The position numbers and the translations under genes are program-made. The notes beneath the pieces were generated by a model. It had not been told where the DNA came from. It saw only the letters and a program-made list of their open reading frames with translations, and did not search any database. From UHGV virus genome UHGV-1335354: a stretch of DNA of 16,228 nucleotides; one strand, given 5' to 3'. Shown here piece after piece: positions 1-16,228 of this stretch. The stretch is from a virus. Position 1 is the first letter of the stretch. Every line of letters begins with the position of its first letter.

Positions 1-55
1 AGAACGAGAGCTTCCCAAGCTCTATACGAGGGTTCGATTCCCTTCGCCCGCTCCA
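1..55 (+). tRNA. glyU: tRNA-Gly (anticodon CCC), 5' part cut by window edge; its 3' end is the attL side of the island
   Basis: Sequence matches the 3' two-thirds of enterobacterial tRNA-Gly(CCC) as I recall it: anticodon loop CTTCCCAAG, T-arm GGTTCGATTCC, acceptor 3' strand CGCCCGC, discriminator and CCA at 53-55. Confidence 0.9.
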
Positions 56-70
56 GAATCTCCCCAGGTG

Positions 71-93
71 GAGAAGACTAAAAAAGTCTTCTC
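71..93. other. perfect 8-bp stem hairpin (GAGAAGAC / GTCTTCTC, 7-nt A-rich loop) just downstream of the tRNA; no U-tract
   Basis: Inverted repeat read directly from the sequence; function unknown (tRNA 3' processing or att-associated structure). Confidence 0.3.
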
Positions 94-552
94 TGTCAGC
101 AACTTAAACAGTTACCTATTTAATTTGCTTAGGAGTTCTACCATTGTGATCCGCCCTTAGTAACTGTCACGTTAAGTTACACGGTGAGATGACAGTATAA
201 CCTAACGTTGGCGGCAGTTGCACCTCTCACACCGCGATAGCACAACGTGAAGATAAAGCCCATCCTGGCATTGTAATGTCATCGACAGACTGAACACACG
301 CATTTAAGCCCGATGTGCGGCCTTGTGGCTGCGTAAACAGGTTTATGGTGATATTGGTCCTTGCAAACCATATGCAAGCTCTATCAGCGTTTCAGCCACG
401 CTCCCAACGGGTACACGGTTATCCTGATAAGGTGTGATCTTTCTGACAATCTGATGAAGTCGCTACGCTCCCGCTTGTTGCTGTATCACCAACGGGGCTT
501 TATGGTTTCTATTGTCTATAATAATCTCACAATTCCCCTGCATGAGGTTGAT

Positions 553-759
553 ATGACTGTTAGCTACAAGATTACTTATGAGCATAGAGACGGTGATCAA
601 ATTAGAATGGAAGAGGTTTTATTCCATTCAGAGCATGAACCAACAAAAGATGAAATTCATGATGCAGTAAGAAAAGACACTGTGAGATTTAATTCTCCAT
701 CTAATGGAGTAACGGCTGTTTCAGGGTTTAAAGTGATTTCGGTTGTCCCTGTTCCATGA
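553..759 (+). CDS. hypothetical small protein (~68 aa); the ORF track extends it to 361 only via a TTG codon
   Basis: ATG at 553 preceded by GAGG 5 nt upstream; open frame to stop at 759; followed by a hairpin. No family recognised. Confidence 0.35.
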   Translation: MTVSYKITYEHRDGDQIRMEEVLFHSEHEPTKDEIHDAVRKDTVRFNSPSNGVTAVSGFKVISVVPVP

Positions 760-770
760 ATGGTTATAGA

Positions 771-787
771 AGGGGCTGGAAGCCCCT
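771..787. terminator. short hairpin between convergent genes (AGGGGCT-GGA-AGCCCCT), candidate bidirectional terminator
   Basis: 7-bp perfect GC-rich stem with 3-nt loop between the stop at 759 (+) and the stop at 793 (-); flanking sequence AT-rich on both sides. Confidence 0.45.
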
Positions 788-792
788 AATTA

Positions 793-1113
793 TTACTTCT
801 TAATATCGCCAGTGCATTGATATTCGATAGTCACAAGTGTTTGCATACAACCAGATGAAGAAGGTTGTGAACATTGAGAAGTGAATCCACCAAAAGGCTC
901 GGCTCCTGAATATCCCCAAGCGGCACAACGCGCTTTGGCTGCATTCATGCCTTGTTGTGGATCTACAACAGGACTTTCAAACATACCGTAAGAATAACTC
1001 ATCCTAACTGTGCCGTCTGATTTGCTTCCACCAGTTGGAACGAGTTGTTTTTTTGTTGCACATCCAGAAATAATCAATGTTGAAGCAAGTAACAGCATTA
1101 AACTTTTGCGCAT
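793..1113 (-). CDS. putative lipoprotein (106 aa) with six cysteines in the mature part
   Basis: N-terminus MRKSLMLLLASTLIISGC has a signal peptide plus lipobox (I-S-G-C) typical of signal peptidase II substrates; no specific family assigned. Confidence 0.6.
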   Translation of the reverse strand: MRKSLMLLLASTLIISGCATKKQLVPTGGSKSDGTVRMSYSYGMFESPVVDPQQGMNAAKARCAAWGYSGAEPFGGFTSQCSQPSSSGCMQTLVTIEYQCTGDIKK

Positions 1114-1257
1114 GTAAATAATCCCAAGAGATAATGGTTATGTATTGATTTAAAGCGTTTTTAGATTAATGCATTAACTTAGCAAAATTAAGTCTTTTCT
1201 GATTGTTTGCAGAGTAAAAATGAGTTGCTTTCGAAATTATTTCGGATGTTTATTGTA

Positions 1258-1425
1258 TTACGGTTTTTCAAACCGTCTAACTATTGTCGCTATTGAATGG
1301 GCAATAATAGCAAGAGGATTCATTTCGTCATTGGAGGCAACAAAAAGTCGGTAACTGATAGCTACAACGAATGAAACAATAACGAGAAAGCGGATAGTGC
1401 TAAGATGTTTTGAAGATAAATGCAT
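1258..1425 (-). CDS. unannotated small hydrophobic protein (55 aa), candidate membrane peptide
   Basis: Hand-translated minus-strand ORF MHLSSKHLSTIRFLVIVSFVVAISYRLFVASNDEMNPLAIIAHSIATIVRRFEKP; ATG preceded by AGGGGG Shine-Dalgarno ~5 nt upstream; absent from the ORF track because it is under 60 aa. Confidence 0.4.
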   Translation of the reverse strand: MHLSSKHLSTIRFLVIVSFVVAISYRLFVASNDEMNPLAIIAHSIATIVRRFEKP

Positions 1426-1765
1426 AACGCCCCCTAAATGAATGTGAGGGGGATTAAATCATGCAAATTTGTTGTGTGCAATACTGGTAATTTATCCTAA
1501 TAGTCTACTATTCACCTCAATCTACGTCAACCAATATTTGATGTAGATTTGATTTTCTTTTAAAAACAATATGTTGCAATTTGTTGGGTTTTGGGGTTAG
1601 GTTGTTTTTTGGACGTTTCCATCAAGTGTAAAGATACGTTTAGCCTTCATAGTGAGTTCAGTTACTGTCTTTTTCTCTGAAATCGGCGCATACGTGATCA
1701 TCGCTTAACGAGAAGATCAGCGCCGTCAGGTCCATGCAGCGACAATTCTGAAATATCAGGAGGCA

Positions 1766-2317
1766 TTACGCTTCCTGCTCTTTCTTGATACGTTGCACCG
1801 TCTGTGTGCTGACACTGAAATCTTTTGCTACGCTCCGAATTGATCCACCATTCGCGAGAGCGGCAACAATTCCCGCTCGATCAATTGCTTTTCCATTACC
1901 ACGTTTTGCTATACGCCCAGCTGCCTTAGCTGCGGCGATCCCTTCACGTTGACGCTCAAGCATCATTTCACGTTCCATTTGTGCCACTGCTGCAAGCACT
2001 GTGAGCATCATATTCCCTGCGGGAGAGTTCTTCCCTGTCTTAAAGTCTTCTTTATGGAAATGCACAGACACGCCGCGCTCTGTTAATTGCTCAACCGTTG
2101 CCAGAAGGTCGGCTGTATTACGGCAAAGGCGATCAATGCTGTGAACATGCAAAACATCACCTTCCCGCACATAGTTCATCATTGCCTCAAACTGTGGGCG
2201 CTGGGTATTCTTGCCTGACGCTTTATCTTCAAAGACTTTATCAAGAGTTACTCCAGCTAATTGACGGTCTGTGTTTTGTTGCACAGTCGATACCCTAATG
2301 TATCCAATATTAGCCAT
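1766..2317 (-). CDS. serine recombinase, small resolvase/invertase type (183 aa)
   Basis: N-terminus MANIGYIRVSTVQQNTDRQ with catalytic Ser at position 10, conserved R/D residues of the resolvase catalytic domain, C-terminal HTH (GGSIRSVAKDFSVSTQTVQRI). AGGA Shine-Dalgarno upstream. Confidence 0.85.
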   Translation of the reverse strand: MANIGYIRVSTVQQNTDRQLAGVTLDKVFEDKASGKNTQRPQFEAMMNYVREGDVLHVHSIDRLCRNTADLLATVEQLTERGVSVHFHKEDFKTGKNSPAGNMMLTVLAAVAQMEREMMLERQREGIAAAKAAGRIAKRGNGKAIDRAGIVAALANGGSIRSVAKDFSVSTQTVQRIKKEQEA

Positions 2318-2551
2318 TTTCTTTATTCCTTCTGTGTTGATTTGTGTGTAGTGATTATTGATCGTGTTGATTAGGTGTGTAAAGGACTTTTTTCACTACG
2401 AAATTCGAAGGTTTTTAGTGTGGTGATTTAGCCTGCTTTATCACTACACGTCTTGCATGAGAATCATGTAGTTACATTTTGGTAAAATTAGCAAGCTATT
2501 AAATAGTGTGTTTATTTTGAAAAAATAATTTTTTGTTGCATTAAAGGAAAC

Positions 2552-2585
2552 TTGTTCAATAAATGGTAGAACATTTATTGAGCAA
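2552..2585. promoter_or_regulatory. 34-bp palindrome (14-bp arms, 13/14 match, 6-bp spacer): candidate protein-binding or recombination site
   Basis: TTGTTCAATAAATG-gtagaa-CATTTATTGAGCAA read from the sequence, ~235 bp upstream of the serine recombinase start. Confidence 0.35.
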
Positions 2586-2940
2586 CAATTTTGCAGTGAT
2601 ACGCTATATGCCGCATTACATAAGGCTTTGCTGATGATAATGTAAAAGTGAAGAAAGTAAGAATTGCACTTTGAAGCTACTTTTCATTGCATTTTTTAGT
2701 ATGGAATTACACGGAATAAACTATGAATATTCTACGATTTACACGAGATATTCTTGCTGTTTAATTCCGGCTTTGGAGATCAGGCATTCGCAAGAATACG
2801 CTAACGCGTTGCCTGAAAAGCCATTGCACATAATAGAGGTGAGCGTATAGCGATACACTAATCATAACAACATCTTCTTACTTTTTAGTTAGTTAGTTGT
2901 TAGTAGGTTATTGTTATGCGCGCTATTAGCGCATGTATAA

Positions 2941-2989
2941 AGGTATCATTTTTATCTAAAGGGGCTTTAGACATTTTTGATACCTTTTT
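2941..2989 (+). terminator. bipartite hairpin (outer 8-bp and inner 6-bp stems) followed by a T-run; candidate rho-independent terminator or structured RNA
   Basis: AGGTATCA...CTAAAG-GGG-CTTTAG...TGATACCT followed by TTTTTC. Confidence 0.35.
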
Positions 2990-3025
2990 CTGTGCAAGAC
3001 ACTTACCAGTGTATAGTGCGGTTTC

Positions 3026-3077
3026 CCTACCTACCCAGGAAATGAGTTCCTACCTACCCAGGAAATGAGTTCCTACA
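3026..3077. repeat. 23-bp perfect tandem direct repeat, 2.3 copies (CCTACCTACCCAGGAAATGAGTT)
   Basis: Copies at 3026-3048 and 3049-3071 are identical, followed by partial copy CCTACA. Confidence 0.9.
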
Positions 3078-3084
3078 ATACTAT

Positions 3085-3106
3085 AATTAAACTACAATTA
3101 AACTAT
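3085..3106. repeat. 11-bp AT-rich tandem repeat x2 (AATTAAACTAC / AATTAAACTAT)
   Basis: Read directly from the sequence, immediately after the 23-bp repeats. Confidence 0.7.
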
Positions 3107-3239
3107 CTTTTATAAATTCTTTTATCTTTTAAAGAATAATTATAGGGATACCCGTTAGGGAGTCTTCGACTATCCCTTAATCTATTGGCATTCGCCAGAA
3201 CCTTGCACAAGTTAGACTGATGCTTGTCATAACAGATAG

Positions 3240-3287
3240 TTTTTGTTTTTTGTTTTTTGTTTTTTGTTTTTTGTTTTTTGTTTTTTG
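3240..3287. repeat. heptanucleotide microsatellite (TTTTTTG), about 7 units
   Basis: G at 3245, 3252, 3259, 3266, 3273, 3280 and 3287 with T6 between each; perfect periodicity of 7. Confidence 0.95.
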
Positions 3288-3943
3288 TTAGTAGTTAGCT
3301 GATCTATGTTCGCTTTCCGCTCACAACGAATATGTAATCTACTATGTGCAAATAGCCTACGGCTTGCGTATGGCTAATAGTCTTGCGCTGTGCGCAGAAC
3401 GATAATTAACTAACTACCATCTAACGATTGAAATTTACTTGTGCAATAACCTGAGCGTAAGCGAATGGTTGTTAGTGTCGCGTTACCCTTTGGGGATGCT
3501 AACGCATAACATGACAAAACAACCAACAACAAAAAAGAAAGAATGGTTTTTGTAGTTGAAGGTTAAATAAGATTCTACCGCTTAAATCAAGCCGTAGGCG
3601 AGCTTAACAGGGTAATGTAAGGGAAACACCTTAGCGGTAATAGATTAGCTCGTTACAGAGCTTCTGAGAACTTTGCAGGTATTTTATAAGATGTCTGAAA
3701 TCAGAGTTTATCTATCCACCATCTTTCCATCATCTGATAAATCAAAAATAAGACCCTTAAATAAGCCTCTGACGAGATAAACAACCTCTACATAAGGGAA
3801 TGTATTGTTTTTATCAAAACCCCGTCAGAGTGCGATTGAGAGCGTTTTAGACAACAGGGAAGAATTGTACCAGAGTAGGCAGCACAAAAAGCTAAGAAAA
3901 ATTATAAGAAATTGAAAATGATCAAATTTTTTATAAAAGAGGG

Positions 3944-3972
3944 TTGACAAAGCCGCCGTTATGTAGTATTGT
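3944..3972 (+). promoter_or_regulatory. candidate sigma70 promoter for the rightward small-gene operon
   Basis: TTGACA (3944-3949), 17-bp spacer, TATTGT (3967-3972); about 115 bp upstream of the first gene. Confidence 0.45.
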
Positions 3973-4088
3973 AAGTAGGGAGGGGAGAAACATCTCTCTC
4001 CATCTAAATAATCAAATCACAGAACACTGCACTTTGAGCCGTCAGGCTGCAAGGTGTGTTTTTCTTTTATCTAAATAAGGAGTTTTTT

Positions 4089-4271
4089 ATGAAATGGTAT
4101 ACACCGGAACACGTCGTAGAGGCATTTAAAAAAGGTGAGCTAACACGACATCAAGTAAGGATGAACAGGAACACAGCGCGGCGCTGTGGTTATCCAGAGC
4201 GTGAAAAATGCTTTGACGATGCACTAAAAATTATTGATGAACTGCGTAAGGCAGAAGCAGAGAAAGAATAA
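4089..4271 (+). CDS. hypothetical small protein (60 aa); ORF track start 4056 is probably too far upstream
   Basis: ATG at 4089 preceded by TAAGGAG at optimal spacing; protein MKWYTPEHVVEAFKKGELTRHQVRMNRNTARRCGYPEREKCFDDALKIIDELRKAEAEKE. Confidence 0.5.
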   Translation: MKWYTPEHVVEAFKKGELTRHQVRMNRNTARRCGYPEREKCFDDALKIIDELRKAEAEKE

Positions 4272-4294
4272 TAACAGGAGAAGGAGAAAACCAA

Positions 4295-4471
4295 ATGAAT
4301 ATTAATTTTGATTCTGCAACTTATAACGCGTTGTTAAATCGTGCAAAGGCAGAAGGGAAATCAATTCCAAAACTTGTTAATGAATTACTAATTACAGTCC
4401 TTACAAAGGAGGAACTAAATGAACCAAAACACCAAAACAATTGCCGAAGCAAAAGCGCAATGCCTCAATAA
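4295..4471 (+). CDS. unannotated small ORF (58 aa), possible ribbon-helix-helix (CopG/Arc-like) DNA-binding protein
   Basis: Hand-translated: MNINFDSATYNALLNRAKAEGKSIPKLVNELLITVLTKEELNEPKHQNNCRSKSAMPQ; GGAGAAGGAG upstream; N-terminal 40 aa resemble an RHH fold by composition; overlaps the next gene by 53 nt in another frame. Confidence 0.4.
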   Translation: MNINFDSATYNALLNRAKAEGKSIPKLVNELLITVLTKEELNEPKHQNNCRSKSAMPQ

Positions 4472-5084
4472 GAAAGATAGTAAACAAACATATGTAGTAG
4501 TTGAACAATGGCTGAAGATGTTTAAAAAGTGGTTCTCACCGTCAGGTAAGGAATACACCGCGACACTTCCAGCCGTTGAAATCTACAGTTACGTAGCTGG
4601 GTTCAATGAACAAGGGCAAGAATGTTACGCCAATCAAAAAACATTAGCTAATATTGGAATGGTTAGTGATCGTCAGGTGCGTAATATTATAAATATGTTT
4701 ATTGATATGGGTGTTCTTTCTGTAGAGGCACGGGACGGGCAAACATCACTCTATAAAGCATTACCCTTTACAGATGCACACATCACACCACCGGAAGACG
4801 TAAAAACCTCTGTAAACGTAGAACAGCCTGCACCTGAAACACAGGAACCGTTAGAAGCGACACACTCTATTGAGCAGGAAACACAGGCAGAAATCACGGA
4901 ACAATCTGATCTTTTTACATGGCTTATTTCCATAGACAGCCAAAAGCCTATGCAAGAAGAAACAGAAAATTTTATAAAACGTGCACTGACCTCGAAGAGG
5001 ATAATTCTTGAAGATGATGCTTTTAATGCACTGATGATAGCCCTGAGAAAAGAAAGTGAAATCTATGACTCAATACCATTTTAA
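4419..5084 (+). CDS. putative winged-helix/HTH DNA-binding protein (221 aa), replication-initiator-like or regulator, with acidic low-complexity C-terminal half
   Basis: AAGGAGG Shine-Dalgarno 7 nt upstream; central segment ECYANQKTLANIGMVSDRQVRNIINMFIDMGVLSV resembles HTH modules of phage/plasmid replication initiators; no Walker motif. Confidence 0.55.
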   Translation: MNQNTKTIAEAKAQCLNKKDSKQTYVVVEQWLKMFKKWFSPSGKEYTATLPAVEIYSYVAGFNEQGQECYANQKTLANIGMVSDRQVRNIINMFIDMGVLSVEARDGQTSLYKALPFTDAHITPPEDVKTSVNVEQPAPETQEPLEATHSIEQETQAEITEQSDLFTWLISIDSQKPMQEETENFIKRALTSKRIILEDDAFNALMIALRKESEIYDSIPF

Positions 5085-5096
5085 GGAGAATAAAAA

Positions 5097-5354
5097 ATGA
5101 AATACAACCTGACATTAAACAAACGAACATTCGAAATTACAGAAAGCGGCTACACACTGGCAAAACAGATCGCTGATAGCAATTATAAGCTACCCGCGAT
5201 TATCAGCTTTCAGGAGTTACCGCACAGTAAAGAACACACACAGCATTGGCTAAATCACCTAAGCCATTTTGGGGTAATTCAGTATGAAGCTGTGAATAGT
5301 CAGACGTTCCGTTTGCTCGAGGTAAACCCGTTTGAATTGTGGATGACACTGTGA
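5097..5354 (+). CDS. hypothetical protein (85 aa)
   Basis: ATG preceded by AAGGAG; part of the co-oriented operon; no family recognised. Confidence 0.5.
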   Translation: MKYNLTLNKRTFEITESGYTLAKQIADSNYKLPAIISFQELPHSKEHTQHWLNHLSHFGVIQYEAVNSQTFRLLEVNPFELWMTL

Positions 5355-5557
5355 TCATATTCGATGGCGAATTTTCACAAGAAATCTTTCTGCAATATTT
5401 ACGGGAAAGAACGGGAATGATTCTGTTTGATTCTGAGTTTTCCGGTGTGGTAGGTGAGCAATTTTTATATGCTCTTCTCGATAACCTAAGTAAACAAGGA
5501 TTATTGCAGTATACAAAAACTCATATGAAAGCATTCAGAATCGACTCTGTAGCTTAA
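5339..5557 (+). CDS. hypothetical protein (72 aa), GTG start overlapping the upstream gene
   Basis: Open frame with GTG at 5339 overlapping the preceding stop; no family recognised. Confidence 0.35.
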   Translation: MDDTVIIFDGEFSQEIFLQYLRERTGMILFDSEFSGVVGEQFLYALLDNLSKQGLLQYTKTHMKAFRIDSVA

Positions 5558-5685
5558 AACAAACAACAAACAACTATCAAACATCTTGAAGGGTGAAACA
5601 ATGGAAAGCTTAATATTTTTCTTAGTATTTATGATCGCTTCCTTTTTTAACACTGCAACAAGAAAAACAAAACGAAGGGGAAGCA

Positions 5686-6066
5686 ATGAGCAAGAAAAAA
5701 GGCAAGAAAAACGTAATAACAACTATTGGCGAAGCATGTGATCAGTATGCGTTAAACAATCCTCGCAAATATAATTATGAGCATGATGCACAACCAGGCG
5801 AGGAATTGATCTTTATACTTGAAGAACCAAGCCCAGAATTGACAGACGAAGAATTATCAATCATTCAAAGTATGGATGGTGTTTACTTCAATCCGCGCCC
5901 ACGCAAAACAACAATCATTGATAGTAGTCTTCTTAAAAGATGGCAGTGTTTAGGCTTCCAGGATATGAATCATTTTCGTGGCTACATGGCTCTTAATAGT
6001 TTGCAGTATGCAGGCGCAAGAGAGACAGAGTTACTTATGCTTGAAAGAATAAAAATAGACGATTAA
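5686..6066 (+). CDS. hypothetical protein (126 aa), lysine-rich N-terminus
   Basis: ATG preceded by GAAGGGGAAG; no family recognised. Confidence 0.5.
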   Translation: MSKKKGKKNVITTIGEACDQYALNNPRKYNYEHDAQPGEELIFILEEPSPELTDEELSIIQSMDGVYFNPRPRKTTIIDSSLLKRWQCLGFQDMNHFRGYMALNSLQYAGARETELLMLERIKIDD

Positions 6067-6107
6067 CAGCGTTGGCTGAATATAACCCTTAACAAAAGGA
6101 AAATAAA

Positions 6108-6329
6108 ATGATTAACAAAGCAATTTTAGAGACAACCACTTTTCATGATCTTAAGCTTCTTTCAGAATGTTTTATAAATATTATTGAACGTGCAAAGGAA
6201 GAGAACGATCTGGCAACTCTGGATGACGTTGTAGACAACATTGCAACTTATAAAATCCCGCTCACTATTGCTATGAAGAAAGCACGCGAAGCACAACAAA
6301 AATTAGAACAATTAGAGGAAGTGGCATAA
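6108..6329 (+). CDS. hypothetical small acidic protein (73 aa)
   Basis: ATG preceded by AAAGGAAA; stop overlaps the next start (ATAATGA). Confidence 0.5.
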   Translation: MINKAILETTTFHDLKLLSECFINIIERAKEENDLATLDDVVDNIATYKIPLTIAMKKAREAQQKLEQLEEVA

Positions 6330-6643
6330 TGAGCGAAGTTCACACCGTAACTATTCAGCTATACGATTTAATCATCGACCTTCAAAAATCTGTTAACGAA
6401 GCCATAGAAGATCCGACAGAATTTAATATAGGAAAAGCCGTTCTCAATCTTCAATCTCTACATGATGCAATGTCAATGTTAGTTGTAGCTTGTGAGGAGG
6501 CCGAAGGCGGGAAAGTTGATGCAGAAGATCTTGCAAACTTCAATCTCATGTTGGCTGATTGTAGTTGTGTTGTTCAAAGTGCAATAGAAGACTTACAGCC
6601 GCTTATTGATAACCTGTTAAGGGGTAAGCATGAGCAACTTTAA
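6329..6643 (+). CDS. hypothetical strongly acidic protein (104 aa)
   Basis: GAGGAAG Shine-Dalgarno; Asp/Glu-rich composition; translationally coupled to neighbours. Confidence 0.5.
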   Translation: MSEVHTVTIQLYDLIIDLQKSVNEAIEDPTEFNIGKAVLNLQSLHDAMSMLVVACEEAEGGKVDAEDLANFNLMLADCSCVVQSAIEDLQPLIDNLLRGKHEQL

Positions 6644-6863
6644 AACTAAGCGTGTGGAGTGCCTGGCGCTCTCTGAGATGGGCGTGTCCTGCGCCTGTTT
6701 CACCATTGGAAAGATCTATACCGGACTACTGAACACAGAGAATAGCTTGATGGTTATCACTGATGACAACGGCAACAACCAGGCGGTTGTAGTGGGCGGT
6801 GCGTGTGCTTTCGGTAGCTGGAAACTGACTACAAAGAAAAATGAAAATAGCACGAATAGCTAA
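6630..6863 (+). CDS. hypothetical small cysteine-containing protein (77 aa)
   Basis: AAGGGG upstream; overlaps the upstream stop; local GC higher than neighbours. Confidence 0.45.
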   Translation: MSNFKTKRVECLALSEMGVSCACFTIGKIYTGLLNTENSLMVITDDNGNNQAVVVGGACAFGSWKLTTKKNENSTNS

Positions 6864-6872
6864 AGATATACA

Positions 6873-6901
6873 TTGACTTTATAACAAGAATGTTATATAA
6901 T
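6873..6901 (+). promoter_or_regulatory. near-consensus sigma70 promoter with no convincing ATG-initiated ORF downstream
   Basis: TTGACT (6873-6878), exactly 17-bp spacer, TATAAT (6896-6901). Confidence 0.45.
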
Positions 6902-6956
6902 AATAAATATGCTTGGAAGATGATAAAGCAAGGATTGCATATTCTCCAATTATATC

Positions 6957-7316
6957 TTACCTCTGCAGCCTCTTATTGTCAATAAGAAAATCTAAGAGAC
7001 GGCGACCGCCACGATCGCCCATCTCTTTAAAACAGTTTTTAGAAAACATCCTCGTGTTTTTCATTGTTGGGTCTGTTCTGATTAGTTTTTCCCTTTTGGT
7101 AAGCGCGGTAGTTTCATTCCTTTTCTGCCGCTGCTTATTTTCAACAAAGAAAAGTTTTCTAAAAGCTGTTTTATAACAGCCTATACCCCTATAAGTTATT
7201 GAACGTTTCTTGGCTGGGTATATGCCTTGCGGCATAAAATCACTATTAAAATTATGTTTCCAACCCGTAGCAAGTTGAGCGTAGTTGAGTGATTCCTTGT
7301 TATCTGTTCTCGCCAT
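6957..7316 (-). CDS. possible basic protein (119 aa, Lys/Arg-rich); may be spurious
   Basis: ATG-initiated minus-strand ORF, weak and poorly spaced Shine-Dalgarno, rare codons; start codon is embedded in a palindrome; lies antisense to the orphan promoter. Confidence 0.25.
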   Translation of the reverse strand: MARTDNKESLNYAQLATGWKHNFNSDFMPQGIYPAKKRSITYRGIGCYKTAFRKLFFVENKQRQKRNETTALTKREKLIRTDPTMKNTRMFSKNCFKEMGDRGGRRLLDFLIDNKRLQR

Positions 7317-7345
7317 ACCTGATGGGCGTCAGGTTATGAACAGAT
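7302..7345. promoter_or_regulatory. nested inverted repeats (outer ATCTGTTC/GAACAGAT, inner CCTGA/TCAGG): candidate operator or RNA structure
   Basis: Read from the sequence; arms share the CAGAT/CCTGAT motif with the terminator stem at 7431-7477. Confidence 0.35.
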
Positions 7346-7430
7346 AGCGCCTTGCGCCAGTTACACATCCCTTACGGTCGGTGAATCCTAAATAGCCAAC
7401 TACCTGGTAACGGTGCATTGTATTTGAGAA

Positions 7431-7486
7431 AACAGATCAGGAAAGACTTTCCAAAGGGTCTACTCGCCTGATCTGTTCTTCTTTTT
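7431..7486 (+). terminator. long-stem hairpin followed by a T-run: candidate rho-independent terminator
   Basis: Perfect 11-bp stem AACAGATCAGG / CCTGATCTGTT with a 25-nt loop, followed by CTTCTTTTT. Confidence 0.5.
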
Positions 7487-7591
7487 AGAACATATAACAA
7501 TGACTGATCATTCTTATATGCTCTTCTCATGAAAGTATATAATCAATGTTATGCTTAATTCGAACATTAAAACCCCCCTCTAATTAATATA

Positions 7592-7619
7592 GCCAGCCTA
7601 CCCGCTGGCATATTTTTAT
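7592..7619 (+). terminator. short hairpin plus T-run, second candidate terminator before the structural-like operon
   Basis: GCCAGC-ctaccc-GCTGGC followed by ATATTTTTA. Confidence 0.35.
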
Positions 7620-7656
7620 AAGTGGAAAACAAATCTGTTATAAATGGGACCACTCC

Positions 7657-7860
7657 ATGAAAAAACAAGACATGATAATCAGTAAAGACGGGGAAACGAT
7701 GACTGTTAGTGATGAAAACATCCTTAAAGTTGCCGCACTGTTGGGAGTTACTCCCGAAAGTCTTCGCTCTACTACTGAACAATTGTTTAAATCTGCTAAT
7801 AATGCGGAAACACCCGCACAGGCTATTTTAAACCGAATCACACAACTGAAAGGAAAATAA
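7657..7860 (+). CDS. hypothetical small protein (67 aa), first gene of the structural-like operon
   Basis: ATG-initiated; predicted largely helical C-terminal half; scaffold-like role is speculation. Confidence 0.45.
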   Translation: MKKQDMIISKDGETMTVSDENILKVAALLGVTPESLRSTTEQLFKSANNAETPAQAILNRITQLKGK

Positions 7861-7865
7861 TATAT

Positions 7866-8252
7866 ATGGCTAACCCATACGGCGTTAAATTCGCCCCTGT
7901 AAACGCGAGCAATGACCTTGTGCGTTGCAAAATTATCGCCTATTCCGGCGATCCCCTGCTGCAAGACCGTTTAATCACACTGGCGGCACCACTGACAGAA
8001 GATGTTATTGTCGGTGATCTGCTGAAAGCTGATGGCACCAAAGCAACCGCCGCCGCTGATATCGCTTACGTCGCTGTAGAACCTTCGTTTGCAGGTCAGG
8101 AAAGCGTAGTGGTTGCACATCCTACTTTCGTTATTCTGGCGCGTGCTGGTATCGAATTTAACGGCATGGCAGAAGAAAGCGTGATCTCAAAACTGCAATC
8201 TATTGGTTTCGTGATCGCTGGTTATTCCGAAGCTGCAATCCCTACTACTTAA
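7866..8252 (+). CDS. possible phage head decoration-like protein (128 aa)
   Basis: Size, position directly upstream of the capsid-sized gene, and a loose pattern resemblance to lambda gpD/SHP-type decoration proteins; E. coli-like codon usage. Assignment unverified. Confidence 0.55.
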   Translation: MANPYGVKFAPVNASNDLVRCKIIAYSGDPLLQDRLITLAAPLTEDVIVGDLLKADGTKATAAADIAYVAVEPSFAGQESVVVAHPTFVILARAGIEFNGMAEESVISKLQSIGFVIAGYSEAAIPTT

Positions 8253-8270
8253 TATAAGGAAATATAAATA

Positions 8271-9305
8271 ATGAATATTCAAGAATTATTTGGTCGTCAG
8301 GCGAGCGTAGTAAGCCCATTCGAATATGAGCAAGGCTTAAACCTGCTGTTCTCTTCCCTGGAGATCTTTGATAAGCAATCTCACAGCACTAACAGTATTC
8401 TTCTGACTACTGCAATTGAAAGCTTTATGCAGATTGCAAATGAGCAAGAACCCTACGCACAAAGTCAGTGGGACTCAAGCAAGCGCGGCACCTTCTCAAA
8501 CGTAATGTTTGAAATGAAGCACCTTGCAACCATCAACAGCGTGACAAGTCGTGATCTTGAACAGTACAGCCGTAAAAATCTTTCTACTGCTGACTCTATG
8601 CTGCTGGCGATCAATGATTTTGCTAATCAGCATTACCGCTCACATGAGAACGCTGTAGAACGTGATCTGCTGCGTGCAATCCTCACGCTGAAAGTAGAAT
8701 CTCAATTTGCAGGTCAAGGTGATATTGATTTGCTGGAAGGTGACGCTAAAACCGTAGCGCCTGCAATTGACTTCACAAGCACTACCGTAAACCCTTACCG
8801 TGCACTGGCTAAGATTGTTCGTCAACAGTCTAACATTCTGGGCGAATCCCTTGCGGCTAAACGTTCCGGTGTTCTTGTGCTGGCTGCTGGCGGCGCTGCT
8901 GATGGTCTGCGTTACAACGATATGCTGAAAGATCAGGTTGTTTACTCCAGCAATGCACAGGCAAGCGCGGCAGTAACTAAGATCGTAGCTGATAACCCAG
9001 CGTATGATGCTTTCCAGCTTGCACAGGTGACTGTTATTGATGTTAGTGACTTCCCGTCAATCGTTGCAGAAATCGGTGAAAATGGTTTGGTTGTGATCCC
9101 GCTGTTCCCTGCTGATGTTCAAGCTTACGTGCTGCATACAGGCGTCGCGGTCCGTCATGCCGAACACGGTAAAGATGCGGAAACACATCACCAATATCTG
9201 ACACAGGATCAGTTTATGTTCCCGTCAGTGTGCACCGAAACGGCTTACCTGCCATTCATTCAGAAAGTAGTTGCTAAAGCGATTATCTTCTCTGAAGCAC
9301 AGTAA
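8271..9305 (+). CDS. possible major capsid protein of the lambda gpE-like family (344 aa)
   Basis: AAGGAA Shine-Dalgarno; length matches gpE (~341 aa); N-terminal segment QELF...FEYEQGLNLLF resembles the gpE N-terminus as I recall it; follows the decoration-like gene as in lambda D-E order. No alignment run. Confidence 0.6.
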   Translation: MNIQELFGRQASVVSPFEYEQGLNLLFSSLEIFDKQSHSTNSILLTTAIESFMQIANEQEPYAQSQWDSSKRGTFSNVMFEMKHLATINSVTSRDLEQYSRKNLSTADSMLLAINDFANQHYRSHENAVERDLLRAILTLKVESQFAGQGDIDLLEGDAKTVAPAIDFTSTTVNPYRALAKIVRQQSNILGESLAAKRSGVLVLAAGGAADGLRYNDMLKDQVVYSSNAQASAAVTKIVADNPAYDAFQLAQVTVIDVSDFPSIVAEIGENGLVVIPLFPADVQAYVLHTGVAVRHAEHGKDAETHHQYLTQDQFMFPSVCTETAYLPFIQKVVAKAIIFSEAQ

Positions 9306-9347
9306 GAATAATAACGCTCCAGCACGTTAAAAAATAATGCTGGCGAT

Positions 9348-9414
9348 AAAGGGCAAAAGGGATTAACTAACCTGTAAAGCAAATACAGTAACGGATCTCT
9401 TTGCCCTTTTTTCG
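9348..9414 (+). terminator. long hairpin (AAGGGCAAA ... TTTGCCCTT) followed by a T-run downstream of the capsid-like gene
   Basis: 9-bp perfect stem with ~42-nt loop then TTTTTCGTTT; an inner 6-bp inverted repeat CCAGCA/TGCTGG lies at 9318-9342. Confidence 0.4.
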
Positions 9415-9448
9415 TTTATACCGTCTATTAAATATTGAGAGAAAAATC

Positions 9449-9649
9449 ATGAGCGAACAAAACAAACAAGTAGAATTATATAAAGCAGTGCGCACACTGG
9501 CAGAAAACACCGATGAATCCATTGTAAACGTTAGCGCCTTATGCCGTTTTCTGGATGTGGATCATAATCGTGTGCGTCAATATGCACATTACCACAATGT
9601 AAGTGCAATCGCGGCTATTCAGTATGTGATGAATAACCCTGTAAAATAA
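9449..9649 (+). CDS. hypothetical small protein (66 aa); ORF track start 9401 is a TTG inside the upstream hairpin
   Basis: ATG at 9449 preceded by GAGAGAAAAATC; no family recognised. Confidence 0.45.
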   Translation: MSEQNKQVELYKAVRTLAENTDESIVNVSALCRFLDVDHNRVRQYAHYHNVSAIAAIQYVMNNPVK

Positions 9650-9667
9650 TAAAAGGAGTACCCAACA

Positions 9668-11515
9668 ATGAGTTTAGATATTTCTGTATCTACTTTAAAA
9701 AATACAGTAACCTTTGTTACCGATCATAAAAGCCTGAATAAAGCTAAAGCAGAAGTTGAAAAACTCCGTAAGCAAATGTCAGCCGTGAAAGACGTAGAAA
9801 TACGTGTTAAGACACACAAACAATCAACAGCTAAAACAAAAAAAGACGTAGACGATATTGCTAAAAAGCAAGCACAGGTAGATAAGGCAAATCTCAAAGC
9901 ACAAAAAGCGGCTCAACGTGTAGCGGCGCGAGAACAAAAAGCCCTGGCAGCACGCAAAGAGAAAGCAGAATTAAAACTGTTAGATGTTGGATCAAGTATT
10001 AGTGCAATGAATCGTCTTAATGTGTCTGAACAATACAAAGCTATTGCACAAGCTAAAGCTATTGCACACGAATATGAGAAGGGCGCTATTAGCCTGGCAC
10101 GTATGAATAGCCAAATGAAACGACTTCAACAGCAACAACGTAAGATTAACGGCAATCGTAACGCTCATGCTAAAGCTTATGCACCTGTTAAGGGTAGCGG
10201 GAGTATTGGCGGCGGTGCTGCTGCTGTTATGCTGGGCGGCTTAGGCGCTGGCGCTGCATTCTTGGCTATGAGTAAAGCAAACGAATTCGTTGCTAATAGT
10301 TTTGCCAATGCTGAGACACAAGGTGAATTATATAGCCGTGCGAAGCTGGGCGGTGTAGACGTTAACCAGATGAATAATATTGAGCAATGGGCGTATAAAA
10401 ACGGCGTTGATTCAATGATGGGCGAACAAGGGAAACGTAAATACCTCGACCAAATGAAAGATGTGCGTGAACGTGCAACCAAATCTTATGATGAGACTGA
10501 ATATGTAGTTGATAAAAAAACTGGTAAAGGGGAATGGAAGGGCGGCGATTCAGGTATTAATACTTTATTAAACGAAGGTTTCTTAACTAAGAAAGATTTA
10601 AAAGACTTCGCTAATAATCCGGCAGGTTTAATAAGTAAAGCAACACAAGGAATGGTGGCGAAAGGTTATTCTGATGCACAGGTGGGGTCACGGCTTGAAG
10701 ACCTGGGAGATGACCTTATGTTGACCTCCAAATATTGGACACGATCCGCTAAAGAAGTGGAACAATCAGCCCGTGAACAAAAAGAATCAGGACGCTGGAT
10801 AACGCAGGCACAACAGGAAAGCGTGATTAAATTCCGTGAACTGAATAATGCACTTACCGGACTTTCTGACTCACAAGGGATCGCCTTTGTTGATGGCTTT
10901 ATGAAATCTCTCGATCCTGCTGTGATTGAAGAATTTAAAAAGAGCATGGTTGCAATGCTGCCAATGTTTACCAAATTGGGCGAGGCTGTAGGGGGGCTGC
11001 TTAATGCGATCATGAAAACTATCAACTGGTTGATGAAAAATGACGAGAAGACGGCAGCTATTCAGAAGAATTTAGGTGATGCCCCTCCTTTAAGTAATGA
11101 AGGAATGAAGAAGAATTTAGATAATCTCACTCCTGATCAATATAAAGGCGCTGGCACTGCAACAACTGCACCGGATAATAGTAACTCTCTGTTTAATACT
11201 ATTAAGGGCTTTTTTGTTAATGGTGATGATTCTCCTTCTGGCGGTCAGGCTGCAATGCAATATGACGTTACAGGGCAAAACATTGCCAACCTGAAAAACA
11301 GTGCTGCACAGCAAGCTATGCAAGCTCCAGCCTACACATTTGCGCCTGTTCTCAATTTTGCACCTGAATTACAAGTTAATGCACAAGTGCCGCTAACTAT
11401 TCAGAGTGATACCGGACGATTGAGCGATTATATCGACTTCAAATCTAAAGCCTCTGCCGCTGAGTTTAGCAAGCTATTAACCCTGGGCGTTATGTCAGGC
11501 GGGTCAACCTATTAA
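9668..11515 (+). CDS. coiled-coil, glycine-rich protein (615 aa), tape-measure-like
   Basis: AAGGAG Shine-Dalgarno; N-terminal ~160 aa K/A/Q/E-rich coiled-coil-like; Gly/Ala hydrophobic segment GSGSIGGGAAAVMLGGLGAGAAFLAMS; no enzymatic motif or Walker A seen. Confidence 0.6.
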   Translation: MSLDISVSTLKNTVTFVTDHKSLNKAKAEVEKLRKQMSAVKDVEIRVKTHKQSTAKTKKDVDDIAKKQAQVDKANLKAQKAAQRVAAREQKALAARKEKAELKLLDVGSSISAMNRLNVSEQYKAIAQAKAIAHEYEKGAISLARMNSQMKRLQQQQRKINGNRNAHAKAYAPVKGSGSIGGGAAAVMLGGLGAGAAFLAMSKANEFVANSFANAETQGELYSRAKLGGVDVNQMNNIEQWAYKNGVDSMMGEQGKRKYLDQMKDVRERATKSYDETEYVVDKKTGKGEWKGGDSGINTLLNEGFLTKKDLKDFANNPAGLISKATQGMVAKGYSDAQVGSRLEDLGDDLMLTSKYWTRSAKEVEQSAREQKESGRWITQAQQESVIKFRELNNALTGLSDSQGIAFVDGFMKSLDPAVIEEFKKSMVAMLPMFTKLGEAVGGLLNAIMKTINWLMKNDEKTAAIQKNLGDAPPLSNEGMKKNLDNLTPDQYKGAGTATTAPDNSNSLFNTIKGFFVNGDDSPSGGQAAMQYDVTGQNIANLKNSAAQQAMQAPAYTFAPVLNFAPELQVNAQVPLTIQSDTGRLSDYIDFKSKASAAEFSKLLTLGVMSGGSTY

Positions 11516-11562
11516 TCATCGCTGTGGGGCTGTTTAGCCCCCTTAAATAAGGATTACAAATT

Positions 11563-12240
11563 ATGGCTTATGGTGCTTTAACCATCGGACGACCGACAGA
11601 ATCACAAGTAAACAGCACAAGTAACGATTCTAACGCGAAAGCGACGAAAGGACAGAACGGTTTCGCTATCATCACCTCTAACCTCGGCAGTGGTGCTAAT
11701 GCTGCGTATGCAGAGTATCAAGCTCTCAGCTTTGACAGCGTGGAATCGACAAAAGTTAGTCGCAATGCGGACGTAACAAGCTATGCCGTTCAGGATGGGG
11801 CTATGGTGTCCGATCACATCCAGATCAAGAACAATAAGTTTTCATTGCAAGGGCGCGTAAGTGAAACAGTATTGAAGCTTAACCCTGATATGCTTAAGAA
11901 CGCGGGTATTAACGGCAATCGTAGAATGCTTATGCTTGAATACCTAAATCAGATCATGGACTCACGCCAGCCCTTCATGTTGATAACAGAACATCGTAAT
12001 TTTGACAATGTGGTGCTGGTTGGGATTGATTACGAAGAAGAAGCCAGCGAATCATTGCTCTTTAATCTTGAATTCGAACAAATACGCCTTGTGAGCTATG
12101 CAACCACTAACGCTATTGCTACAAAGACACAGAGCAATAAATCGACAGGTGGCAGTGTTAAAACTAAGGTTAACCCGACACCACAAAAAGCACCTACGAG
12201 TACAGGTGAGGACGTTATAACGCCAGTATTTAAACAATAA
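11563..12240 (+). CDS. hypothetical protein (225 aa), last gene of the structural-like operon
   Basis: AAGGA Shine-Dalgarno; followed by a hairpin; no family recognised. Confidence 0.55.
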   Translation: MAYGALTIGRPTESQVNSTSNDSNAKATKGQNGFAIITSNLGSGANAAYAEYQALSFDSVESTKVSRNADVTSYAVQDGAMVSDHIQIKNNKFSLQGRVSETVLKLNPDMLKNAGINGNRRMLMLEYLNQIMDSRQPFMLITEHRNFDNVVLVGIDYEEEASESLLFNLEFEQIRLVSYATTNAIATKTQSNKSTGGSVKTKVNPTPQKAPTSTGEDVITPVFKQ

Positions 12241-12282
12241 CAATAGCGGTACTATAAAATGCTCCGTAACGAGATAATCCTA

Positions 12283-12313
12283 AAAGAGGCTCCCATTACA
12301 AGGAAGCCTCTTT
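12283..12313. terminator. hairpin between convergent genes (AAAGAGGCT ... AGCCTCTTT), candidate bidirectional terminator
   Basis: 9-bp perfect stem with 13-nt loop, T-rich 3' flank, between stop at 12240 (+) and stop at 12334 (-). Confidence 0.5.
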
Positions 12314-12333
12314 ATTGCGCCTATGGCGTTGTT

Positions 12334-13554
12334 TTAAGCCTTAAAATCAATATTTAATTCATATCTTACTAATTCTACATATTCAGCTAATTCTTGAATG
12401 CTTGCCCCTTGTGAGTAGGTGCGAAAGGCTTCTGTTTTAGCTATCTGCTCTGTATGTCCGGTAATGGCTCCGATCCGCTGTTCAGGCACTCCGGCACGAT
12501 CAAGACAAGTGATAAACATCCCGCGCAAGCTGTGAAAGCATTGTCTATTTGTAGCGATTGGCAAGACGCTACGACGTAAACGTGAGAATGCTTGAGAATA
12601 GAAAGGGCCTTTCTTACCGTCGATTCTTTTTACTTTGTTCGAGTGAGGGAACAAATATTCACCATAATTATGATTTAAATATTCATCGACAATAATCGAT
12701 AGTCTCGAATGTATCGGAACGTGCCTGATCCCTGCTTTAGTCTTACTTTTGCTGATATAAAAACAGCGTATTCCTTCCACAGTTACAACTTCTGACTTTT
12801 TCAGGCTTGCCAGTTCGTCTAATCTGCATCCTGAAAACAAGCCCATTAAAATAATATTTCTGATCTCCGGCTCCGCTGCATCAAGTAGCTTTTGCATTTG
12901 TTCAGGTGTAAACGGTTGATAACTCTCGATTGTGCGACGTGCTTCGAGGTTATGACCGTGAAAAGGGTTACTGTCTGGTATTCCGTCATAACGGCGTTTA
13001 GCAAATTCATAGAGCGATCCTAAGCATGTAAGCCAGTTTTGACGAGATTGATCGGCTGCTCCTCGTTGCTTCTGGTCATCTAAGAATACTGTTACAAGCC
13101 GTCTGCCTATTTTCTCAATATGAATATCATCTTTCTGAATGCTTTGTAAAAATAGCTCAACGGCCCTTGCTGATTTCTGTAGTGTTGAGTATGAACGACG
13201 CTCTCTGTAGCATTCGGCGTATTCGTCACGTATTAGGCACAGGGAAGGCGATGCATAACCGCGTTTTACGGCTCTTTGCGTGTTTTTATTGGCCCTTGCC
13301 TCTGAATGTAAGGATTCAATAGCTTGTTGTAACCTCCTTTCGGGGTTATCAGGATTATGTTTCCGCTTTAGTTCCTCCCATTCTAATAATAGATGGTTTC
13401 TGAATCTTCTCGCCTCATTCAGATCTCGTGTAGATGTGCTTTTTCTCCACAACTTGTAAGGGTAAAGATGACGTAAGTATTTAGGAACAAAAATCTGAAA
13501 CATCCAGATCCCATCTTTTCTCTTAAATAAGTATGCTTGGCTCTTGATCGACAC
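12334..13554 (-). CDS. int: tyrosine-type site-specific integrase (406 aa), GTG start
   Basis: C-terminal catalytic-domain signature: Arg in GCRLDE, HSLRG box, ITGH, terminal Tyr region; AGAGGA Shine-Dalgarno 8 nt before GTG; lies 86 bp inside the right direct repeat. Confidence 0.9.
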   Translation of the reverse strand: MSIKSQAYLFKRKDGIWMFQIFVPKYLRHLYPYKLWRKSTSTRDLNEARRFRNHLLLEWEELKRKHNPDNPERRLQQAIESLHSEARANKNTQRAVKRGYASPSLCLIRDEYAECYRERRSYSTLQKSARAVELFLQSIQKDDIHIEKIGRRLVTVFLDDQKQRGAADQSRQNWLTCLGSLYEFAKRRYDGIPDSNPFHGHNLEARRTIESYQPFTPEQMQKLLDAAEPEIRNIILMGLFSGCRLDELASLKKSEVVTVEGIRCFYISKSKTKAGIRHVPIHSRLSIIVDEYLNHNYGEYLFPHSNKVKRIDGKKGPFYSQAFSRLRRSVLPIATNRQCFHSLRGMFITCLDRAGVPEQRIGAITGHTEQIAKTEAFRTYSQGASIQELAEYVELVRYELNIDFKA

Positions 13555-13631
13555 GATAATGATCCTCTATTATCACGTAATCAGTTACCTATGATTGATC
13601 ACAAAATCTTTATTTTACAGCAGGTTATTAT

Positions 13632-13661
13632 GGGTTTCCTCGATTCCCTTCGCCCGCTCCA
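13632..13661 (+). repeat. attR: direct repeat of the tRNA-Gly 3' end
   Basis: 13640-13661 is identical (22/22) to tRNA positions 34-55 (TCGATTCCCTTCGCCCGCTCCA); upstream GGGTT also matches with a 3-4 bp insertion. Confidence 0.85.
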
Positions 13662-15504: not shown

Positions 15505-15635
15505 TTTTCATAATGAGTTACAGCACAACGTTGGGTATTGACTGAGCAAGATGAACGACAAGGACAACGACATCAGCCTTATGAGGAGCAAGAAAATGAA
15601 AGCAAATTCGAAAACGATCAGAAGGATGAAAGTTA

Positions 15636-16228
15636 ATGTTCGGTCTGAGGAAAGTAAATCGAAACACTCATACGTTTGAAACCACTTTTCAAAATTGGAA
15701 AGAAAATGGCGAAGATGTTGCATTATTAATGCCCGAATTTAGTGCTAAATGGCTACCGATAGCAGAAGAGAGTGGCAGCTGGTCTGGATGGGTATTGCTT
15801 GGAGAAATATTTCCCTTAATTTCATCTGAGCTCGCTGGGATGGCTTTAATGCCAGAAACGGAAAGGTTAATAGGGGAATGGCTCAGTTTATCCAGTTCCC
15901 CGTTAAATCTAAAGCATCCTGAACTAAAATATAATCGTTTGCGCGTAGGTAAAGTATTTGATGGAGTATTGAGCCCTGCTCAACCACTAATAAGAATATG
16001 GACAGGGGAATTGAATCTTTGGTTAGATAAAGTCACAGTCTGCCAATACGGAAACGCTCCAGCGTTAGACAAAAAATCGTTATATTGCTCCATTCATTTT
16101 GTAATTGGATTTAGTAAAACATGTTACAGAAGTCTTGTTGATATTGAAGTTGGTGATGTTTTATTAATCTCAAATAATTTGGCTTATGCGGTTATTTATA
16201 ATACAAAAATTTTTGATTTAATTTATCC
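15636..16228 (+). CDS. type III secretion SctQ/SpaO-family protein (EpaO-like), 5' part; continues past the window end
   Basis: GAAGGA Shine-Dalgarno; segments WSGWVLLGE...LAGMAL and HFVIGFSKTCYRSLVDIEVGDVLLI parallel Salmonella SpaO (WSAWIKPGDW...LAGAAV; RFVIGSSDTQRSLLGRIGIGDVLLI) as recalled. Confidence 0.65.
   Translation, partial: MFGLRKVNRNTHTFETTFQNWKENGEDVALLMPEFSAKWLPIAEESGSWSGWVLLGEIFPLISSELAGMALMPETERLIGEWLSLSSSPLNLKHPELKYNRLRVGKVFDGVLSPAQPLIRIWTGELNLWLDKVTVCQYGNAPALDKKSLYCSIHFVIGFSKTCYRSLVDIEVGDVLLISNNLAYAVIYNTKIFDLIY

Follow-up and report, generated by a model that had tools for sequence, protein, structure and literature searches.

Candidate RepA-binding iterons beside an AT-rich block in a putative Escherichia coli satellite of Stephanstirmvirinae phages

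Architecture of the island

The DNA analyzed is the UHGV virus genome UHGV-1335354, a stretch of 16,228 bp that is called the window here. The window begins inside a tRNA-Gly(CCC) gene, which Rfam detects as a partial tRNA match at 1-52. The 22-bp 3' end of this gene (TCGATTCCCTTCGCCCGCTCCA, 34-55, + strand) recurs as an exact direct repeat at 13640-13661 (+ strand), and a tyrosine integrase gene (12334-13554, - strand; Pfam Phage_integrase and DUF6538, PHROG integrase) lies beside the second copy. Because the tRNA end is repeated next to an integrase gene, the two copies are assigned as attL and attR, and they delimit a 13.6-kb island (34-13661). Of 5,426 complete E. coli genomes, about 500-620 have related noncoding sequence, located at glyU, thrW or a tRNA-Leu gene; a scan of genome contigs returned two loci only and hence no cross-genus diversity.

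A sigma-70-like promoter (TTGACA-17-TATTGT, 3944-3972, + strand) was located by promoter scan and has counterparts in the related islands L002, L003 and L007. It precedes a rightward operon that encodes a 60-aa protein (4089-4271), an RHH-like protein of 58 aa, a 221-aa HTH_36 protein designated RepA-like, several small ORFs, a capsid-like protein, a tape-measure-like protein and a Dit-like protein. The tape-measure match in PHROG has an E value of 1.6e-27, and the Dit-like protein has a Pfam match with E = 4.9e-27 and shares ~50% identity with tail proteins of Stephanstirmvirinae. The capsid-like protein (344 aa, 8271-9305) has RefSeq homologues annotated as major capsid protein, matches no Pfam or PHROG family and gave no tblastn match in 50,697 phage records. 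Searches of all island ORFs against Pfam and PHROG detected no terminase or portal family. Primase and helicase domains are absent from the island ORFs, no helicase-loader family (P-like or other) was found in the island, and alpA and a terminase small subunit are also absent from it. A terminator-like hairpin (ACAGATCAGG...CCTGATCTGT plus a T run, 7425-7480) is positioned between the early and the structural genes.

A 2023 sequence analysis described 224 putative satellites in E. coli that carry a modular RepA along with genes for capsid, tape measure, baseplate and integrase (PMC10448857), and this was the only literature found on Stephanstirmvirinae satellites. The island shares with that group a RepA with a modular N terminus; decoration-like, capsid, tape-measure and baseplate genes; a tyrosine integrase; att sites and a position beside a tRNA gene; and a relationship to the same three phage nucleases. 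Its capsid, tape-measure and baseplate/tube-initiator genes likewise occur without a complete tail module. These features identify the att-flanked island as a putative E. coli satellite of Stephanstirmvirinae phages, in keeping with the initial annotation, which had likened the element to phage satellites and PICI-type elements that replicate after excision.

The noncoding region that holds the repeats spans 1.7 kb (2318-4055). A serine recombinase of the resolvase/invertase type (183 aa, 1766-2317, - strand) borders it, and the 400 bp upstream of the recombinase gene (2318-2712) are 87-93% conserved across all island types. This segment could be a res site for the resolution of multimers, should the island replicate. 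The interval 3146-3700 is conserved and hairpin-rich, and an allelic module at 3484-3509 reads GCGTTACCCTTTGGGGATGCTAACGC in the window and GTGCTACGCGTTAGCGATGTTAGCAC in relatives with pairing kept. A long-range inverted repeat joins 3187-3211 to about 3440-3470, and a + strand terminator-like hairpin that ends the region in relatives (L003, 9636-9656) is degraded in the window. From its sequence, the interval may hold a noncoding RNA gene or several single-strand initiation signals. It also contains a perfect (TTTTTGT)x7.1 microsatellite (3240-3289), present in 7 copies in the window and L001, 3 in L002 and ~1 in the other islands, and partly complementary to an A/C-rich tract at 3516-3543.

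The repeat array and the adjoining AT-rich block

The initial annotation had reported 23-bp and 11-bp tandem repeats, and Tandem Repeats Finder recovers both. The 23-bp unit CCTACCTACCCAGGAAATGAGTT is repeated 2.2 times at 3026-3076 (100% matches, score 102), and the 11-bp unit ACTACAATTAA 2.4 times at 3080-3105 (93% matches, score 45). None of 200 dinucleotide-preserving shuffles of the whole window produced an array with a score >=100, so the 23-bp repeat is far beyond chance. Arrays with a period >=8 and a score >=45 arose at 0.175 per shuffled window in such shuffles; when the 74-nt AT-rich block was shuffled by itself, 4.6% of the shuffles contained one. By this measure the 11-bp repeat is marginal, weak when taken singly, and owes much to low complexity; it is not retained as a repeat in the other island types.

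Each 23-mer contains a dyad, CAGGAA-N5-TTCCTA, with the core GGAA-N5-TTCC. The first copy (3026-3048, + strand) has its dyad core CAGGAAATGAGTTCCTA at 3036-3052 (GGAA-N5-TTCC at 3038-3050), and its palindrome is present in all islands with the same RepA domain type, designated type A below. The second copy with 5 nt of a third unit (3049-3076, + strand) has its dyad core at 3059-3075 (GGAA-N5-TTCC at 3061-3073). The window holds four GGAA-N5-TTCC sites against 0.21 expected, and four or more were seen in none of 200 shuffles. The fourth match (7440-7452, GGAAAGACTTTCC) falls within the loop of the hairpin between the early and structural genes, is found in this lineage only and is probably a coincidence.

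The copy number of the 23-mer is polymorphic, with two copies in the window and in the O26:H11 island L002 and one in L001, which lacks the second copy. L001 is 98.8% identical to the window, is decayed and is the sole near-identical island with a single iteron copy. In this island (E. coli UTME-14; 14076-15969 and 23326-24334), repA is truncated by IS2 and the integrase gene by IS1, and IS3 and IS481 insertions lie near the recombinase gene. Variation between near-identical islands indicates that the perfect 23-bp duplication is recent. One further island, L010, has one site beside an intact RepA. Comparison of the island sequences shows the conserved unit to be the palindrome rather than the 23-mer array.

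The array runs into a block at 3073-3145 that contains the 11-bp repeat and is the highest-AT 72-mer of the 16,228-bp window (86% versus a mean of 60%). The block is conserved beside every array type in the related islands, and it is a candidate for the DNA-unwinding element that the initial annotation had placed next to the 23-bp repeats. DnaA boxes (TTATCCACA with <=1 mismatch, or TTWTNCACA), IHF sites and 13-mers were not detected in 2318-4055, and the locus has no DnaA-box cluster of the kind that marks a DnaA-dependent, oriC-like origin. A switch in GC/AT skew near 3.3 kb was set aside as evidence because the skew follows gene orientation.

A TATAGT hexamer resembling a -10 element lies just 5' of the iterons (3012-3017, + strand) and is, by comparison with the O26 variant, the remnant of a strong promoter. 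In L002 (13115-13144), TTGACA-18-TATAGT occupies the equivalent place, matches the consensus at 11 of 12 positions and reads into the iterons. The promoter scan of the window (2990-3017) finds the -10 element retained without a -35 element, the latter apparently lost with a ~150-bp deletion between two similar 'tgcaag(a)cact' segments. Neither L003 nor L007 conserves the promoter adjoining the array.

Co-variation of the initiator domain and the array

The 221-aa RepA-like protein (4419-5084, + strand) is modular, with a variable winged-helix N-terminal domain (~residues 30-125, type A in the window) followed by an acidic linker and a C-terminal domain that are common across islands. PHROG matches to replication initiation, O-like initiator and DnaD-like loader families are weak (E 7e-6 to 4e-4). 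Pfam HTH_36 is a borderline match in all four domain types tested (A-D), Pfam RepA_N is unmatched even at E <=10, and a PDB sequence search with the RepA profile gave nothing significant. The AlphaFold model has a pLDDT of ~88 across residues 33-125, and the top structural match of the predicted N-terminal domain is 4ro3, the N-terminal domain of RepA, the replication initiator of the Vibrio cholerae satellite PLE (PMC7145576). The plasmid RepA_N structures 4pta, 4pt7 and 5kbj are also among the matches. Since generic winged-helix regulators have scores almost as high, the fold assignment lends support without being decisive. Some homologues are labelled 'transcriptional regulator' in RefSeq. 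The satellite protein has been annotated as RepA_N by HHsearch (PMC10448857), and together with the PHROG matches this agrees with the earlier description of the 4419-5084 product as initiator-like.

The C terminus of the protein (5060-5084 in the window) ends in an invariant IPF, with the alleles EIYDSIPF, YEDFDIPF and FDDFDIPF among homologues that include P0028 and P0018; P0028 has an additional internal LDDIPF. The E. coli SSB tip DDDIPF docks PriA, DnaG, chi and other partners. The RepA end resembles this DDDIPF tip (PMC5872125), and it is a speculative lead to how an initiator without a helicase might recruit partners.

Five N-terminal domain types (A-E), pairwise <40% identical, occur among 38 related islands, and each is accompanied by its own palindrome. 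Type A goes with GGAA-N5-TTCC, type B with GTAAC-N5-GTTAC, type C with AACAG-N4-CTGTT, type D with TAGGTCAC-N-GTGAnCTA and type E with TATCA-N4-TGATA. The domain type matches the array type at the equivalent position in 38 of 38 loci, many of which are near-identical, so the independent comparisons are far fewer (five types in a few recombinant backgrounds). Types A-D alone account for 36 of 36 typed loci. Type E was tested prospectively: it was predicted from the Muut nuclease, and the island that was fetched has TATCA-N4-TGATA x4-5 abutting the AT-rich block. The arrays consist of 1-5 palindromes with a period of ~23 bp and in every case border the one conserved AT-rich block; nearly all intact islands have 2-5 phased sites. 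Array type is independent of the RHH variant, the C-terminal variant and the downstream noncoding backbone. L018 and L005 form a pair that is near-isogenic through the noncoding region and differs only by domain (type A versus type D) and by a ~100-bp insertion, which in L005 places three type D sites inside the AT-rich block with the old type A array still present.

The initial annotation had taken absence of the repeats from homologous islands as evidence against its idea. As a literal sequence the 23-mer is indeed missing from types B-E, where analogous arrays take its place; since these arrays match the initiator type, the replacement supports the iteron idea. The co-variation as a whole supports binding of these sites by the N-terminal domain, as had been suggested for the 4419-5084 protein, and does not prove replication. 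Non-cognate arrays are seen upstream of the cognate array in L005 (8960-9200), L034 and L041 (2075-2405), with the order B x1, D' x5, C x1 and then E x4-5 in L041. Such arrays may have been left behind by earlier replicon types, as fossils, or may act as decoys for phage nucleases.

Two neighbouring genes were considered and rejected as determinants of specificity. An RHH-like ORF of variant alpha is present near the array, as previously noted (58 aa, 4295-4471, + strand). Its AF2 model has an extended N terminus and two helices, and Pfam RHH is matched only at E 0.19. The part of the earlier proposal that cast it as a repeat binder fails, because array type is not tied to the RHH variant present (alpha, beta, gamma or none). 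The first small gene (4089-4271) is conserved across types and cannot set specificity.

The third GGAA-N5-TTCC match in the window is an extra type A site (GGAAATCAATTCC, 4356-4368, + strand) inside ORF 4295-4471, 63 bp upstream of repA. A site at -63 is found in 11 of 12 type A islands, the exception being L001, and no other type has a site close to its repA gene. The ORF is 96-98% identical in DNA to gene bas60_0101 of the phage PaulScherrer, which also carries a type A site (L037, 7076); inny and Mt1B1_P17 have a nuclease gene at that genomic spot, without a type A site. The site at 4356 may be an autoregulatory operator or a nuclease cleavage or homing site. Over the 140-167 nt just upstream of repA, the window (4281-4447) is 96-98% identical to the lytic Justusliebigvirus PaulScherrer (L037, 7001-7167), which is evidence, at the level of sequence, of a recent exchange of DNA between satellite and phage at the 5' edge of repA.

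Phage nucleases, related origins and alternative readings

The N-terminal domain of RepA is homologous to a DNA-binding domain of T5orf172-type phage nucleases. The inny, Muut and Mt1B1_P17 proteins each consist of two RepA-type DNA-binding domains followed by a MUG113/GIY-YIG-like nuclease domain that matches Pfam MUG113. The first domain is type B in inny_184 (92% identical to the island type B), type E in muut_154 and type C in P0022, the Mt1B1_P17 type. The second domain is type A in all three, with 86% identity to the window RepA in inny_184 and 75% in the other two (75-86% amino-acid and 90% nucleotide identity). These proteins have been read as Odn-like anti-satellite nucleases, and the second DNA-binding domain of each was reported without a cognate satellite (PMC10448857). 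In the sequence comparisons made here, the type A RepA of the window is this cognate, and the match of type A islands to the second domain is new. Cutting by the ICP1 nuclease Odn depends on the PLE iterons, and PLE variants whose iterons have been naturally restructured by duplication escape it (PMC8263062). This restructuring parallels the array polymorphism described above, two copies in the window and L002 versus one in the decayed L001.

PLE is one of the closest parallels. Its RepA binds semi-palindromic iterons in a noncoding region (PMC7145576, PMC8263062). Like the putative satellite described here, PLE is an integrative satellite of a lytic myovirus. Its initiator has a RepA_N-like N-terminal DNA-binding domain, to which the island domain is possibly related in fold; in both initiators the C-terminal domain is unrelated, and helicase and primase are lacking. 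Both have semi-palindromic direct repeats in a large noncoding region away from the initiator gene, swap the initiator domain and the actual or candidate origin as matched pairs, show natural iteron restructuring by duplication, and face phage chimeric nucleases that join a satellite DNA-binding domain to a GIY-YIG-type domain. The two systems differ in that no sequence homology to PLE proteins is detectable and the domain here matches Pfam HTH_36, not RepA_N. PLE has three ~30-bp repeats, whereas the islands have ~17-bp dyads with a 23-bp period in 1-5 copies, at least five specificity types, phage nucleases with two DNA-binding domains, a tyrosine integrase at a tRNA gene, and capsid, tape-measure and tube-initiator-like genes.

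The repeated semi-palindromic sites, the joint change of specificity domain and iteron, and the adjoining AT-rich region are as expected of a RepA_N-type iteron origin. The RepA_N plasmids pSK41 and pTZ2162 of Staphylococcus aureus have a dimeric winged-helix initiator, as is predicted for the island, and likewise direct repeats with inverted sub-repeats; the host-specific C-terminal domain of this plasmid family would be a further likeness. Unlike the island, these are Firmicutes plasmids, and their origin is usually inside the rep gene. The lambda origin has four dyad-symmetric sites with a ~23-bp period followed by an AT-rich stretch and lies inside the O gene; specificity resides in the N terminus of O, which varies among lambdoid phages. 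The weak PHROG matches to O-like families are a further likeness. In contrast, the array here lies 1.3 kb upstream of repA and a P-like loader is lacking. Only an 8-bp x2.1 repeat was found inside the repA gene, which does not resemble a lambda-type origin. SaPIs and PICIs with Pri-Rep also have iterons of their own that flank an AT-rich region and are matched to their own initiator, but that initiator is a primase-helicase, which the island does not have, and the locus is not an origin of the PICI/SaPI kind (cf. PMC10448857). That study mentions no origin or iterons, and the origin-like array with five specificity classes, as read from these sequences, is new here.

The best explanation is that the 23-bp repeats are RepA-binding iterons at which an integrative phage satellite of 13.6 kb initiates its replication, a reading based on sequence comparison and given a probability of about 0.72. 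It supports the idea of the initial annotation that iterons lie here beside an unwinding element. The RepA-like protein, probably as a dimer, would bind CAGGAA-N5-TTCCTA through its winged-helix N-terminal domain, as the strict co-variation implies. Two sites 23 bp apart (~two helical turns) adjoin the 72-bp, 86% AT block, which by analogy with iteron origins would melt. The common C-terminal domain with its SSB-tail-like IPF end might, speculatively, bring in host or helper-phage factors for priming or for helicase loading. Replication would probably be triggered by infection with a Stephanstirmvirinae phage, and it may need the helper phage, by analogy with PLE (PMC7145576). The nucleases of some helper phages, with the same DNA-binding domains, would find and cut the array as ICP1 Odn does at the PLE origin; the array is probably also a nuclease target. 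Swapping of the initiator domain together with the array and variation in array copy number would follow from such nuclease pressure. Against the origin reading, co-variation shows binding and not replication, and a repressor and its operators would co-vary alike. One site also seems to be tolerated in L010, the protein has no sequence match to Pfam RepA_N, and the island is without helicase, primase or loader.

It is improbable that the palindromes are instead operators at which the HTH protein acts as a repressor or autoregulator of a promoter into the noncoding region, with no role in replication. Such a protein would give the same co-variation, the near-consensus promoter of the O26 variant fires into the array, type A has its extra site 63 bp upstream of the gene, and the RefSeq label of some homologues fits a regulator. 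However, the array-side promoter is not conserved in L003 and L007 and survives in the window only as a -10 remnant, while the conserved promoter of the operon lies ~900 bp downstream of the array. All array types abut the same AT-rich block, a site near the own gene exists in type A only, the nearest structure is that of a satellite initiator, and phage nucleases with the same domains fit the targeting of an origin. Iterons often double as operators, and regulation is possibly an additional role rather than an alternative. A reading of the array as mainly a recognition or homing target, or decoy, for the phage HTH-nucleases that the island itself does not use draws on the type A, B, C and E domains of those nucleases (75-92% identity), on the type A site in PaulScherrer bas60_0101 exactly where Inny and Mt1B1_P17 have the nuclease gene, and on the accumulation, in L005, L034 and L041, of non-cognate arrays upstream of the cognate array. 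It is very unlikely, given that the matching domain is on the island's own protein and the cognate array is always the one abutting the AT-rich block; a pure target would be counter-selected and not retained and co-swapped with an island gene.

The repeats might also specify RNA hairpins (5-6-bp stem, 5-nt loop) with which a structured noncoding RNA spanning 3020-3700 would begin, as diverged downstream homologues start exactly at about 3020. The upstream promoter of the O26 variant and the + strand terminator-like hairpin at the far end in relatives would suit such a transcript, and the downstream region is hairpin-rich with allelic modules that keep pairing. This is the least credible of the readings. 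Apart from the partial tRNA at 1-52, Rfam (E <=1) and ARAGORN find nothing in the region. Where the arms of a palindrome mismatch, neither strand shows a bias to G-U, type D has a fixed non-pairing position, and the RNAalifold covariation term is about zero in the downstream region; array type follows the DNA-binding domain, and the promoter is not conserved. Neutral recent slippage, with one copy sufficient, would account for the perfect copies, for the 98.8%-identical island with a single copy and for the one site of L010. But the single-copy L001 is decayed, with IS2 in repA and IS1 in int, and nearly all intact islands have 2-5 phased sites. Slippage is a remote prospect as an account of the array; it concerns copy number only, is plausible for the second copy and leaves the function of the site undisputed.

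A broader version of the origin reading joins the matched pairs, the two-headed nucleases and the SSB-tip mimic into a hot-swappable origin cassette shaped by an arms race, and taken jointly these elements make a tentative proposal that is rather doubtful as a whole. At least five pairs of initiator domain and iteron would circulate, a new array would insert into the AT-rich block, and the old arrays would remain as fossils or possibly decoys. The constant second head of the nucleases would target type A satellites, so that one enzyme would cover two replicon types. The RepA tip (D-x-IPF) would mimic SSB and recruit PriA, DnaG, chi or helper-phage equivalents to an origin without its own helicase or loader.

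The iterons in five classes, the unwinding block and the matching initiator domains would together be the first concrete map of an origin in a widespread E. coli satellite family. So far, V. cholerae PLE and ICP1 are the only pair for which an arms race of satellite origin against phage nuclease has been shown, and the sites defined here would allow a direct test in E. coli that uses short oligonucleotides and phages already available. They also offer a means of predicting which therapeutic or BASEL-type phages overcome which satellites.
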